The position numbers and the translations under genes were made by a program. A DNA stretch of 64,000 nucleotides from Candidatus Hydrogenedentota bacterium. Lineage in GTDB: Bacteria > Hydrogenedentota > Hydrogenedentia > Hydrogenedentales > SLHB01. This document shows, one piece after another, positions 35,885 to 39,514 of the stretch; positions within the stretch are counted from its first letter, which is position 1; every line of letters starts with the position of its first letter. Location: contig BTVY01000012.1 in assembly GCA_045863335.1 (NCBI GenBank), positions 1 to 64,000 on the forward strand. Direction: 5' to 3'. The notes below the pieces were generated by a model. It was given only the letters and a program-made list of their open reading frames with translations, was not told where the DNA came from and did no database searches.

Positions 35885-37474
35885 CTATTCCTGCACTCTC
35901 GAATGCGCGAGCGCTTCCAACTCTGGTGACAACTTCCCGCCCAAGTCGGCCGCGCGTTTCGCGGCTGCCGAGGCCGCTTCGATATCGCCTTTTCCGAGAT
36001 GCAGCTCCGCAAGGGCTTCGTAGGGTTCCGAGTCGTCGGACAACAGAAGTGCCGCACGCTGATACGATTCGATGGCGCGATCAATGTCACCCGCGTCGCG
36101 GAGGATTGCGCCGAAGTCGAGCCACACGGCCGGATTGGCGCGGTCGATTTGAGCGGCCCGGGATATCGCCGCGAAGGCTTGTTGGCGATTGCCCTGGGCG
36201 TTGAAGACGCGCGCCAGGCCGGCGTAGGCCAAGGCGCTGTCCGGCTGCAAACGAATCGCCCATTCGAAGGACTGCCGCGCGGCATCGAAGTTTTCCATCT
36301 TCTCGTAGACAATGCCCATGTTGATGTAGGCGTCGACGTATTGCGGGTTCAATTGGAGGGCCTTTTGATACGCGGCGAGGGCGCCTTCCAGATCGCCGGA
36401 ATCTTCGAGGGGGAACGCGAGACGCGCGTAGCCGTCGGGATCGTTGGGGACTAACTCGGTGTACTTGCGGTAGAGCGTGATGGATTCGTTGAACCGGTCC
36501 ATCTCATAGAGAATCTGCGCGAGGTTATAGACCGTCTTGGCGTCGTCGGGGCAGAGGTCCAATGCGTTGCGGTACGCCTTCGCCGCGGCGTCGCGATCGC
36601 CGGTCGCGTAGCGCGCGCTGCCCAAACCGCCGAGGGCTTCGCGGTACGTGGGGTCGGCTTTCACCGCCTTCTCGAAGTTGGCGTTGGCGGCTTCGAGGTT
36701 TCCCGCGTTCAGGTCCAGGAAGCCGAGTCCGCTTAGGGCTTCGGCACTCCGCGGGTCGAACTCCAGCGCCATGGAATAGTAGCTGCGGGCGAGGTCCAGA
36801 TTTCCGCGATGCTGGATGGCGAGAGCGGTCTGGGTGAGCACCACGGCGACGGTCTGCTTCTTGTCCAGGGCGCGGTAGTCTTCGGGACGGACGCAGGGGA
36901 ACGGCAAATAGGTTGCGAGGTAGTCCTTGCTTCCGTGAACTTCGCCCTTGTCGGTGGTCTCTATGTACAGCGGCGGCGAGCTGTCGTGTTCGACAAAGAC
37001 GTGCCCGCGTCCGGCGACCATGCGCAAAGAAATGCCGAGCCGTTCGCCGAGGGTGACGTAGAGAACAGTCAAACCGAAGCAGTTCCACTGCTGTTGATCG
37101 AGGACTTCGTTGAATCCCACAAAGACATCCGGAGCAACCACCTCGCTACGACCGAATCCCCAATCGAGATAGATCACGGCGGCCATCATGCGCAACCGGG
37201 ATTTGGGATCGGTGCGGGATGCGAGGCGCGCTTCTAATTCGTTGGCGAGGCCGTCGAGTTTGCTTTCGTAGCGATCGACGCGGACGGCGGGGTTGACGCC
37301 TTTGGCGATAATCAGGGCGGCTTCGGCGAGATCGATTTCGGCTTCGGGAAGTCTGGCCAACTCGGATAATTCGGCGAAGGTTGGCGGCGCAGAACCGCTG
37401 GGCGCTTGGGCAAGAAGCGGCGCTGAGAGCGACAGGAGAATCGTTGCGTATCGGAGGAGCGGGGGAATTCTCAC
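35885..37474 (-). CDS. Secreted SirB1/transglutaminase-like domain plus TPR protein
   Basis: Signal peptide; DLAEAALIIA, NCFGL...GHVFV...YIETT; about 9 TPRs. Confidence 0.78.
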   Translation of the reverse strand: MRIPPLLRYATILLSLSAPLLAQAPSGSAPPTFAELSELARLPEAEIDLAEAALIIAKGVNPAVRVDRYESKLDGLANELEARLASRTDPKSRLRMMAAVIYLDWGFGRSEVVAPDVFVGFNEVLDQQQWNCFGLTVLYVTLGERLGISLRMVAGRGHVFVEHDSSPPLYIETTDKGEVHGSKDYLATYLPFPCVRPEDYRALDKKQTVAVVLTQTALAIQHRGNLDLARSYYSMALEFDPRSAEALSGLGFLDLNAGNLEAANANFEKAVKADPTYREALGGLGSARYATGDRDAAAKAYRNALDLCPDDAKTVYNLAQILYEMDRFNESITLYRKYTELVPNDPDGYARLAFPLEDSGDLEGALAAYQKALQLNPQYVDAYINMGIVYEKMENFDAARQSFEWAIRLQPDSALAYAGLARVFNAQGNRQQAFAAISRAAQIDRANPAVWLDFGAILRDAGDIDRAIESYQRAALLLSDDSEPYEALAELHLGKGDIEAASAAAKRAADLGGKLSPELEALAHSRVQE

Positions 37475-37490
37475 TTGATGTCCCTCTTGT

Positions 37491-37530
37491 CTACACGGAC
37501 CTACACGGACAGGCACGGACACACGCGGAC
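37491..37530. repeat. Four degenerate 10-bp tandem units (CTACACGGAC, CTACACGGAC, AGGCACGGAC, ACACGCGGAC)
   Basis: Visible 10-nt period with conserved CGGAC. Confidence 0.8.
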
Positions 37531-37574
37531 GCGAGGCTGCGTTTGTTTTGGCAAGGCCGATCGCGCTATGCTTC

Positions 37575-37700
37575 CGTCGGTGCCGGGAGGCGCCTTATCC
37601 GCGAAAGATGGTATCACTCCCAAGACGTTCAAACGAATTCGTGAGAGAATTTCCTTTGTGGACAGTGCGGATCGCGTCCACGATACAGACAAAGGAATCG
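37575..37700 (+). ncRNA. Candidate structured cis-regulatory RNA leader
   Basis: Stems GGGAG/CTCCC, AATTC/GAATT and GTGGAC/GTCCAC; complementary segments ATCCGC (37597-37602) and GCGGAT (37667-37672); -10 TATGCT at 37567; AAAGGA RBS. Confidence 0.55.
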
Positions 37701-37705
37701 ATCTC

Positions 37706-38245
37706 ATGGCCCGTCCTATCCCATCCCTCGAAGAATGCAAACGCGACGCATCTCTGCTGCTCAAAGACCTGAAGTCGGAGCGAGCCGACGTGGCGAAGAA
37801 TGCCGCCGAACGTTTCCGGAGGATCGCTCCGTTCCGCGAGCAGACCGAAGACGAAATTCTCGCGAATTGCGATGCGATTCAGCGCAAACATGCCCTTGCC
37901 GTCGTCGCCCGCGAGCACGGTTACGCGGCGTGGAAGAACTTGAAGGACGCCGCCGATGTGCTGTGGTGTCCGCCGGGTTCGAGCGCGTTCTGGCACAACT
38001 GGTGCAAGTCGCACGAGGAAGCGCGGTCTTACCTCGAAGCGAACGGCGGGTATTTGCTCACGGCCCACGGCAAGTGGTTCATTGCGGAACGCGGATACAT
38101 CGAGCATCTCGGGCTGGACCCCGAGGATCCACGCTGGGAAGCGATCGGGTTCGACATGCATGAACCGAAAGATGCCGCAGCGCGCGACGGACTGATCGCC
38201 GATCGCAAGGCCGCGCGCGATCGCGCAGCCAATACATCGCGGTAG
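37706..38245 (+). CDS. Conserved hypothetical protein with N-terminal helical HALxxxAREHGYxxW domain
   Basis: AAAGGA RBS; MARPIPSLEECKR...HALAVVAREHGYAAWKNLK; C-terminal GGYLL...LGLDPEDPRW. Confidence 0.75.
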   Translation: MARPIPSLEECKRDASLLLKDLKSERADVAKNAAERFRRIAPFREQTEDEILANCDAIQRKHALAVVAREHGYAAWKNLKDAADVLWCPPGSSAFWHNWCKSHEEARSYLEANGGYLLTAHGKWFIAERGYIEHLGLDPEDPRWEAIGFDMHEPKDAAARDGLIADRKAARDRAANTSR

Positions 38246-38257
38246 ACGACCCGACAT

Positions 38258-38329
38258 GTAGCGCAGGCGTCCCCGCCTGCAATTCTTGGAAGTTAATGGG
38301 AAGAATGCAGGCGAGGACGCCTGCGCTAC
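38258..38329. repeat. Inverted pair of GTAG-type REP elements (REPIN-like)
   Basis: GTAGCGCAGGCGTCCCCGCCTGC ... GCAGGCGAGGACGCCTGCGCTAC, each with an internal GCAGGCG/CGCCTGC palindrome; between convergent genes. Confidence 0.85.
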
Positions 38330-38367
38330 GTTATGCGGTTTGGAAACTGCCAAATCGTCCGGCGATA

Positions 38368-39441
38368 CTAGCCTGACGTCCAGACCTCCTGTAAGAACCG
38401 TATCACATTCCCATGAAAGATGGCCTCGATATCTTCTGCGCCGTATCCGCGTGCGGTGAGCAAATCCTGGTACTTGGCCAGGTCGGCGATGGTGTTGAGG
38501 TCGGCGGGGCATTGTTCGCGGCCGAAGCCGCCGTCGAGGTCGGAGCCGATACAAACGTGGTTGGCGTTGCCGGCGAGTTGGCAGATGTGGTCGATATGAT
38601 CGACGACGTGCTCCATTCTGAGCCCGGCTTCTTCGGGCAGGGTCTTGTGCTTAATCCAGCCGGGGATCACCATCCATGCGTCGAGGACCGCGCCGATGAC
38701 CGCGCCGCGCTCGATGAGCAGGCGGATCTGGTCGTCGGAGAATTGGCGTTCGCCGGGGACGACGGTGCGGCAGTTGGAATGGCTGGCCCAGACTGGGCCG
38801 TGGAAATGGTCCATGGCTTCCCAGAAACTGTCGTCGCAGAGATGAGTGGCGTCCAGGATCACATTCAGGCGCGCCATTTCGTCGAGGAGTTCCCGTCCGC
38901 GCGGGCCGAGTCCGCCGGTGGCTTCGGTGCCTTGGGCGTAGGTGCCGGGTCCGTAGTGGGCGGGTCCGACGGCGCGGACGCCTTGGGTATAGAAGCCTTC
39001 GAGATGGGCGGGCGTGATGATGGCGTCGGCGCATTCCATGCTCAAGACGTAGCCGATGGGGGCGTTCGCCGACGGATCGCCTTTCCATAACGCCGCATGA
39101 CGCTCCAGTCCGGCTACGTCGACAATGGCGGTCATCTCCCCCGCTTCTTCCATGGCGCGGTACCATGCGAGCTGCCATTGCGTCATGGCCCAGGCCTGTT
39201 CCGGACTGTTCGAGCCGGGCAGCGGGTTGCCGGGTTTCACGTAGCGCGCGATGAGCGTGGCCACGCAAAGCCCCACGCCGCCGCGGCGCATCTCCGGCAG
39301 GCACACGACGCCATTGCCGCGGTCCGGATAGTCCGTGAGATCGCGTTCGCGTTCGCGGATCTCTTCGATAGACCGGGTGAGATCGCGGTTCCAAAGCGTC
39401 GCGTTCATGGCGAGATCGAGATGGATGTCGAAGAGGAGCAT
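38368..39441 (-). CDS. Membrane dipeptidase (peptidase M19, amidohydrolase fold)
   Basis: DIHLD, SME, DATH, WASHSN, IGSDLDGG. Confidence 0.9.
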   Translation of the reverse strand: MLLFDIHLDLAMNATLWNRDLTRSIEEIRERERDLTDYPDRGNGVVCLPEMRRGGVGLCVATLIARYVKPGNPLPGSNSPEQAWAMTQWQLAWYRAMEEAGEMTAIVDVAGLERHAALWKGDPSANAPIGYVLSMECADAIITPAHLEGFYTQGVRAVGPAHYGPGTYAQGTEATGGLGPRGRELLDEMARLNVILDATHLCDDSFWEAMDHFHGPVWASHSNCRTVVPGERQFSDDQIRLLIERGAVIGAVLDAWMVIPGWIKHKTLPEEAGLRMEHVVDHIDHICQLAGNANHVCIGSDLDGGFGREQCPADLNTIADLAKYQDLLTARGYGAEDIEAIFHGNVIRFLQEVWTSG

Positions 39442-39473
39442 GCGGCGATTCCTGGTTCGGGGCAGACACAGTA

Positions 39474-39514
39474 ATCGGACGGATCAGACCGATGGGCCCG
39501 ATCCGTCCGATCGG
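39474..39514. repeat. 9-bp periodic, self-complementary repeat (ATCGGACGG ATCAGACCG ATGGGCCCG ATCCGTCCG)
   Basis: Visible; ATCGGACGGATC/GATCCGTCCGAT inverted arms; right after the pepF stop. Confidence 0.8.

Follow-up and report, generated by a model that had tools for sequence, protein, structure and literature searches.

Several described leader RNAs share features with the element considered here. In ribosomal-protein and other RNA-binding-protein operons, autoregulatory structured leaders cover the Shine-Dalgarno (SD) sequence, one leader per gene; to our knowledge, the binders in these operons are known RNA-binding proteins and no leader extends beyond a single lineage. SAM-II and preQ1-II are small H-type pseudoknot aptamers in which the third loop is rich in A and the ribosome-binding site lies inside the conserved fold. 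The guanidine-IV (mepA) and Gd4v RNAs are described, in the available part of the source, as a 5' structured domain that a loop-loop pseudoknot connects to a hairpin located downstream, which serves as expression platform and is a Rho-independent terminator (PMC9788692). The element analysed here lies in a 64,000-nucleotide (nt) stretch of contig BTVY01000012.1 of a Candidatus Hydrogenedentota bacterium (the window), directly ahead of the gene for a protein of 179 amino acids (aa). It is a conserved, doubly pseudoknotted 5' leader RNA with its SD sequence paired in the fold, and represents a previously uncatalogued RNA class. The finding is much larger than the window had suggested, being that of a widespread class of leader RNA coupled to a protein domain.

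Covariance models were iterated because a first-pass MAFFT alignment of 54 leaders (A2) misaligned hairpin P3. Model R1 was built from 11 Hydrogenedentota leaders and matched 93 of 100 sources at E <= 0.2; R2 was rebuilt from the R1 matches (94 distinct rows; its own matches taken at E <= 0.01); R3 carries the long-range pairing PK2 as nested structure (51 rows, 49 distinct). The resulting features of the leader and its gene are as follows.

37706-38245, + strand: gene for the 179-aa protein, with the structured 5' leader directly ahead
37576-37708, + strand: full extent of the leader motif in the covariance-model matches (R1 120.5 bits, R2 84.9 bits)
37579-84 / 37589-94, + strand: helix A, GGUGCC / GGCGCC, the loop of which is the 5' strand of helix B
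37585-89 / 37617-21, + strand: helix B, GGGAG / CUCCC, forming an H-type pseudoknot with helix A
37597-37603, + strand: 5' strand of PK2, AUCCGC(G), with its partner at 37666-72
37603-37616, + strand: conserved GAAAGA, mini-hairpin P2 (GAU 37607-09 / AUC 37613-15) and the A of UCA
37622-37650, + strand: variable linker, including a hairpin proposed in the initial annotation; sequence and length differ between orthologues
37651-37697, + strand: P3 hairpin, with P3a at its base, P3b, and an apical loop (37664-75) holding the 3' strand of PK2, GCGGAU (37667-72)
37651-57 / 37691-97, + strand: P3a, anti-SD/SD helix UUCCUUU / AAAGGAA, sequestering the SD sequence
37658-63 / 37676-81, + strand: P3b, GUGGAC / GUCCAC, supported by covariation
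37692-96, + strand: SD sequence AAGGA, 9 nt ahead of the ATG at 37706

Support for this fold comes from sequence comparison and not from single-sequence folding, which gave a minimum free energy of -42.5 kcal/mol versus -37.8 +/- 3.8 for dinucleotide shuffles (z -1.25), a non-significant difference, with 24 of 200 shuffles as stable. In the R2 alignment of 94 distinct leaders, 90.6% of the cells are paired versus 74.9% in shuffled alignments, 23 of the 26 pairs show changes on both sides, and the covariation score is 0.457 versus 0.202 for shuffles, none of 500 shuffles reaching the observed value and slid controls giving at most 0.126. The R3 alignment, covering PK2 and helix A in 49 distinct leaders, scores 0.433 versus 0.155. 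Leaders of non-orthologous genes agree with these figures (A10, 19 leaders), with 92.7% of cells paired versus 69.4% in shuffles and double-sided changes at 20 of 21 pairs. Fitting of the alignments to covariance models biases these values in favour of structure, and the slid controls and the loop test given below agree with them in direction.

Helices A and B, separated by one unpaired base, form a classical H-type pseudoknot. Five of the six pairs of helix A change on both sides and 97.3% of its cells are paired (A7, an R3-based alignment), while helix B shows double-sided changes at 5/5 pairs with 99.6% of cells paired (A6, the R2 alignment), and again at 5/5 pairs among the non-orthologue leaders of A10. 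The long third loop of this pseudoknot holds the 5' strand of PK2, GAAAGA, P2 and UCA; AAAGA and UCA are at least 90% conserved among 54 diverse leaders, and the three-base-pair P2 exhibits double-sided changes at two pairs and 99.6% paired cells (R2 alignment), its third pair being CG in 45 leaders, GC in 38, UA in 8 and AU in 2. For P3a, all seven pairs change on both sides in the R2 alignment (90.2% of cells paired) as well as in A10, its cells being paired in 90-97% of cases across A6 and A10, and its 3' strand is the SD sequence. P3b behaves likewise, with 6/6 pairs in both alignments and 81.0% of cells paired in the R2 alignment. Thus, the leader displays the covariation-supported structure of a 5' untranslated element together with a candidate expression platform, in which P3a covers the SD sequence and PK2 links it to the core.

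PK2 is 5-8 bases long across leaders and shows double-sided changes at 5 of its 6 pairs, with 95.0% of cells paired in the five-pair helix and 74.4% in the sixth pair (R3 alignment). Its two strands vary together between lineages, as AUCCGC/GCGGAU, GUCCGA/UCGGAC, ACCCGA/UCGGGU, UAUCCACA/UGUGGAUG and CACCCGGA/UCCGGGUG. When the P3b loop only was considered, a duplex score of at least 6 was reached in 58% of 66 own pairings versus 11% of 3622 cross-lineage pairings; over the whole downstream region the same test discriminates poorly, that score being reached by 66% of the own pairings, by 23% of those across lineages and by 17% of the shuffles.

The initial annotation of this locus was made from the sequence of the window, and all its strings were confirmed by a sequence check (TATGCT 37567-72; GGGAG 37585-89 / CTCCC 37617-21; AATTC 37636-40 / GAATT 37647-51; GTGGAC 37658-63 / GTCCAC 37676-81; ATCCGC 37597-602 / GCGGAT 37667-72; AAAGGA before ATG 37706). 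Two of the three hairpins that it had drawn, GGGAG/CTCCC and GTGGAC/GTCCAC, are retained with covariation at 5/5 and 6/6 pairs, and the third, AATTC/GAATT, falls in the variable linker. An inner ATC/GAT pairing of its first hairpin found no support, the bases concerned belonging to PK2 and P2. The proposed pairing between the ATCCGC and GCGGAT loops, with changes on both sides at 5/6 pairs, corresponds to PK2. Helix A (37579-84/37589-94) and the anti-SD/SD helix (37651-57/37691-97) were absent from it.

Regarding known RNAs, cmscan against Rfam 15 returned no match on any leader (window positions 36500-39500 at E <= 10; 24 other leader-bearing loci at E <= 1), in agreement with the initial annotation, which could not match it to a named family. 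No description of the leader was found in the literature, a search that may have overlooked motifs printed in supplements alone or in subscription journals, and none of the motifs named in the available part of a 50-genome survey (PMC11109978) is a fitting candidate. Among the published motifs covered, just one combines a suitable range of taxa with the lack of an Rfam accession, namely Rhodopirellula-1, a possible cis-regulatory RNA of Proteobacteria and Planctomycetes (Weinberg et al. 2010, PMC2864571). Identity with it was rejected on the part of its supplementary alignment available (PMC2864571), where it has a different sequence and a single long hairpin without GGCGCC, GAAAGA and UCAC.

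The leader shares with guanidine-IV and Gd4v, to the extent that the available text allows comparison (PMC9788692), a pseudoknot-linked platform, nucleotides of high conservation within and near the pseudoknot, and MATE and acetyltransferase neighbours. On the contrary, its 3' hairpin sequesters the SD sequence and is not followed by the U-tract of a terminator, its 5' domain is itself an H-type pseudoknot, its acetyltransferase partners are of the hexapeptide type and not GNAT, and it is tied to a protein domain rather than to a gene set. With SAM-II and preQ1-II it has in common a pseudoknot and a ribosome-binding site buried in the conserved fold; unlike them, it contains a further, long-range pseudoknot as well as a distinct hairpin for the SD sequence, occurs in no metabolic gene context and gives no Rfam match at E <= 10. 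The resemblance to autoregulatory operon leaders consists of a structured RNA directly before the gene of the proposed binder, an SD sequence that is covered and a one-to-one pairing, whereas the domain concerned here has no known RNA-binding fold and the same RNA occurs in at least six phyla and many protein architectures.

That domain is the N-terminal half of the 179-aa protein (hereafter the N-domain), the two parts of which were delimited on an AlphaFold2 (AF2) model.

37706-37969, + strand: N-terminal helical domain, residues 1-88, with five helices in the AF2 model (block predicted local distance difference test (pLDDT) 90-98, residues 11-80)
37970-38245, + strand: C-terminal alpha/beta domain and stop codon (AF2 model)

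The RNA follows the N-domain, and not the whole protein, across otherwise unrelated proteins. Loci with this domain were found by searching genomes with an N-domain profile (A9), and R2 was then run on them with filters off. A leader is present at the four evaluable non-orthologous loci of Hydrogenedentota (L182, L184 and L187, with L188 recognised by eye), at 16/20 loci of Planctomycetota, plus one by eye (L222), at 16 of 23 in Acidobacteriota and at 15 of 16 in Myxococcota. In one related genome (G031) the RNA lies ahead of the gene for a 421-aa protein whose similarity to the 179-aa family is confined to residues 1-88. A Pfam scan of 14 leader-bearing N-domain proteins returned ankyrin repeats in nine, Glyoxalase in one, T2SSE with T2SSF in one and no family in four, one of the latter (L210) being a 176-aa protein of the orthologue type. 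This is consistent with the early suggestion of a portable leader, the proteins encoded behind it, of ankyrin, glyoxalase and other types, having just the N-terminal module in common. The N-domain stands at the head of 917 protein clusters (255-812 aa), most of the 120 listed having ankyrin or leucine-rich-repeat (LRR)-type C-termini; the leader survey covered N-domain proteins of types other than LRR. The T2SSF and T2SSE protein, a type II/IV secretion ATPase, is encoded in Planctomycetota (L212 13-1749, - strand) with a leader.

Within the family of the 179-aa protein itself, which comprises 517 representatives at E <= 1e-10, RNA and protein are closely associated. Its 51 near-length relatives in the protein collection are, where named, Hydrogenedentes-type hypothetical proteins, and it is present in 10 of 61 related genomes. 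Seven orthologues with 48-92% protein identity resemble one another more closely in their upstream 130 nt than in the protein, except for the middle ~30 nt, which are variable and contain the AATTC/GAATT hairpin. Scans of genome and metagenome contigs added 58 and 57 further loci, from Hydrogenedentota, Myxococcota, Parvibaculum, Asticcacaulis, Acidobacteriota, Planctomycetota and others, including metagenome-assembled genomes (MAGs) of Coxiellaceae, Phototrophicaceae and Bacteroidetes, and nearly all of them carry a common motif 100-150 nt ahead of the gene. At 97 of 100 loci found through the protein, R2 matches directly upstream, on the strand of the gene and ending at or near the start codon, with no second match. 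R2 gave no match at L060, L067 and L070, the last two being weak partial protein matches.

The association also holds at the genome level. In the genome of the window, 37576-37708 is the sole R2 match and there is one N-domain gene (A9 profile), and of two weak protein matches elsewhere (L002 and L003), L002 was rejected as spurious since it lies inside another gene. Among the 61 relatives, RNA and protein co-occur in the same nine genomes. A tenth genome is positive for the protein (G002, with no more than a fragment of the gene where a contig begins), and another is the tenth positive for the RNA (G031, a weak match). Five genomes of other phyla have one R2 match each, at the gene. Whole-genome R2 searches miss divergent leaders, so that copy numbers in other genomes are lower bounds (none of the known leaders was recovered in G510 and G598, which have four each, in G446 and G626, which have one each, or in G028). 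Searches that started from the RNA yielded 16 true matches in 135 Hydrogenedentota genomes, 16 in a sample of 151 Myxococcota and 3 in a sample of 151 Alphaproteobacteria. Both family domains are encoded in 21 of the 23 evaluable open reading frames (ORFs) downstream of these matches, the exceptions being L148, the G031 locus, with the N-domain only, and L169, with a reduced N-domain. Five weak R2 matches (L150, L151, L152, L230 and L231) were discarded as spurious, lying inside coding sequence and without P3 or PK2 features. Altogether the RNA was found in at least six phyla: in Hydrogenedentota, Planctomycetota, Acidobacteriota, Myxococcota and Proteobacteria, and at single loci labelled Chloroflexi-type and Bacteroidetes.

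Upstream of the leader, two promoter elements are predicted in the window.

37543-37548, + strand: -35-like hexamer TTGTTT, 18 nt before the -10 box, proposed from the sequence
37567-37572, + strand: -10 box TATGCT, with a predicted transcription start at about 37579

The reading of TATGCT as a -10 box, already made in the initial annotation, is supported by other leaders, TAnnnT starting 12-13 nt ahead of helix A in 29 of 93 unique leaders and lying within -20 to -7 of helix A in 36 of 93, versus 15% in shuffles; this pile-up suggests a 5' end of the RNA at the motif or slightly ahead of it, and the start of the leader is probably the transcription start, at about 37579. TTG-containing hexamers stand at about equal distance in the other leaders inspected, and a simple promoter scan of the region called no promoter, including at the TTGTTT hexamer. 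A 685-nt contig of a relative in the RNA library spans 37584-38268, that is, leader and gene up to a downstream inverted repeat, which is a weak hint as to the start; other contigs of that library run further upstream, and contigs prove neither start, end nor strand. In the window no stop codon interrupts the reading frame along the leader, and an ATG at 37569 lies inside the -10 box.

Our preferred reading, to which we would assign a nearly even chance, is that the leader acts as a translational operator to which its own product binds through the N-domain. PK2 ties the third loop of the A/B pseudoknot to the apical loop of P3b, and P3a, the basal helix of the P3 hairpin, pairs the SD with the anti-SD sequence, so that the complete fold would occlude ribosome binding and its stabilisation would lower translation, a direction suggested by the structure. 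The N-domain in its free form, perhaps even while nascent on its mRNA, would bind the folded leader and thereby repress its own synthesis. Considering that (i) the leader lies directly upstream of the gene of the proposed binder and co-occurs with it, (ii) the RNA is inherited with the N-domain whatever the C-terminus and the operon partners, and (iii) these partners vary or are absent, which speaks against a pathway-specific metabolite signal, the N-domain is the simplest candidate effector. A bolder version, in which the nascent N-domain clamps the double pseudoknot in cis, so metering the number of proteins per mRNA, and the cassette can be grafted onto any C-terminal domain, appears rather improbable; if true, it would give self-limited output to adaptor-like proteins (ankyrin, LRR, glyoxalase, nuclease-associated and others).

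Several observations weigh against autogenous control. Neither Foldseek nor VIA recognises an RNA-binding fold in the N-domain, and some loci depart from the association: no leader was seen at the Planctomycetota loci L213 and L216, nor at L225, whose N-like stretch is internal, none was detected at 7 of the 23 Acidobacteriota N-domain loci, and none is detectable at the Myxococcota locus L204 (1480-2640), where a non-orthologous protein matches the N-domain weakly at its start (E 7.7e-7) and differs in its C-terminus, a negative that helps to delimit the N-domains accompanied by the RNA. L169 bears a leader before a gene whose N-domain is much reduced. Conserved unpaired nucleotides in a compact pseudoknot would be equally typical of small-molecule aptamers, genes standing beside efflux or acetyltransferase genes would more naturally be ligand-activated than repressed, and repression by the fold is itself deduced from structure.

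These last points lead to the main alternative, somewhat unlikely in our estimation, of a new riboswitch class, in which the core (GAAAGA, UCA and the A/B/PK2 junctions) would be bound by a small molecule or an ion and tune PK2 and P3, and with them SD access, the N-domain proteins being needed under the condition that the ligand signals. A compact double pseudoknot of ~130 nt with unpaired nucleotides at least 90% conserved, a built-in SD-sequestering platform and a spread over at least six phyla would suit such a class, and the MatE efflux, hexapeptide acetyltransferase and glyoxalase partners of some lineages recall the toxin-responsive regulons described in the available part of the guanidine-IV and Gd4v source (PMC9788692). 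However, the first gene after the RNA always has the N-domain, the heterogeneous C-termini and partners show no association with a coherent pathway or transport function, and the context proposes no ligand. The effector could instead be another trans factor common to N-domain genes, either a docking machine or chaperone or a small RNA, coupling the synthesis of adaptor-like proteins to the state of their partner. The occurrence of the N-domain on repeat-type (ankyrin, LRR) and other C-termini in the 917 clusters suggests the layout of adaptor or delivered proteins, and the conserved unpaired nucleotides are identical among the four paralogous leaders of each of two genomes (G510 and G598); but no conserved neighbouring gene that could encode such a factor was seen, and the idea, being entirely inferential, is decidedly unlikely.

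Little likelihood is likewise given to a constitutive structural element without dedicated effector, serving for 5'-end protection, low fixed translation or as a thermosensor. The motif does start at the predicted 5' end of the mRNA and the SD sequence is permanently paired in the conserved fold, but two pseudoknots and invariant unpaired nucleotides exceed the needs of SD masking or 5' protection, for which simple hairpins suffice, and the strict link to one protein domain would be left unexplained. Binding sites of the CsrA type (GGA) were considered as well and dropped, because the purine-rich loop of helix A covaries with the 3' strand of helix B and GGA is not kept. Hardly credible, finally, is the view that there is no RNA element and that the stretch is an N-terminal coding extension or a DNA operator. 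In its favour, the frame of the window stays open from 37475 on, a start at ATG 37569 would give 225 aa, two close relatives (P0001 and P0002) are called with that length, and GGCGCC is palindromic. Against this, the motif is interrupted by an in-frame stop in 50 of 89 unique leaders, the changes are compensatory in the helices and not codon-wise, and most orthologues are called from the downstream ATG; moreover, U-G pairs are frequent in the R2 and R3 alignments, with 27 of 49 rows at one pair of helix A, and fit an RNA on the + strand only. The 225-aa calls are probably a recurrent mis-annotation that hides the RNA.

If autogenous control or one of the other RNA-based readings holds, a widespread and structurally elaborate class of cis-regulatory RNA would be added to the catalogue, and its joint inheritance with a protein domain, as one unit through many architectures, is a behaviour not described for known leaders. 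It would also provide the first functional handle on a very common, unmodelled N-terminal domain (917 clusters, and 517 representatives of the 179-aa family). With a 130-nt RNA and an 88-residue domain the system is experimentally tractable, and experiments could separate autogenous control from an orphan riboswitch. For annotation, a systematic error is flagged, some gene callers extending the ORF through the leader.

The AF2 model of the 179-aa protein has a mean pLDDT of 92.3 and finds no significant match in the PDB (best E 0.99 with Foldseek, best Z 4.7 with VIA); the protein matches no Pfam or NCBIfam family, and a search of the ESM Atlas returned unnamed clusters only. Membership in Glyoxalase_8 (PF20066) was rejected, its 13.5 bits (E 0.074, residues 53-83 only) lying below the gathering cut-off of 23.7 bits. 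Twenty of 39 relatives match PF20066 at E <= 0.1 (best 1.4e-4), with a resemblance limited to the N-terminal helices, and a search for PF20066 in five genomes gave no match, the controls likewise remaining without one.

Genes 3' of the orthologues vary, encoding MatE (L035, L041), a glyoxalase (L069) or MbnP (L027, L036), or being absent, and a hexapeptide transferase of ~211 aa follows at L066, L109, L112, L059 and L103. In Archangium/Cystobacter-type and Parvibaculum loci, a partner of 115-135 aa is encoded directly 3' of the family gene (L020 3083-3445, L052 3055-3405, L021 3065-3478 and relatives), and in Myxococcus-type loci it is fused to the C-terminus of the family protein, giving forms of 307-339 aa. 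Its profile matches the I-TevI catalytic domain (E 3e-6) and its model matches 1ln0 (E 3e-5, target-normalised TM-score 0.85), which together indicate a GIY-YIG-like fold. A DNA photolyase gene lies directly upstream of the leader at L018 (784-2316), and a RuvB gene 158 nt downstream of the family gene at L111 (2186-3055). The photolyase, RuvB, GIY-YIG, MatE and glyoxalase partners hint at a theme of DNA damage or genotoxins.

In the window the 179-aa gene stands alone, with a divergent tetratricopeptide-repeat gene on one side and a convergent dipeptidase gene on the other. Between the two convergent genes there is one further feature.

38253-38334, no strand assigned: long inverted repeat with a nearly perfect stem of ~30 base pairs

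This repeat is likely a bidirectional terminator, and the 685-nt RNA-library contig ends at 38268. Its Rfam matches are weak and of hairpin or microRNA-like type only. It matches, in parts, several RNA-library contigs that stem from other contexts, and it may be a repeated element besides a terminator. Just 5' of the promoter, at the intergenic positions 37484-37530, a 10-nt unit that ends in CGGAC is repeated in tandem about four times; many short RNA-library contigs match this segment alone, which suggests a dispersed repeat.

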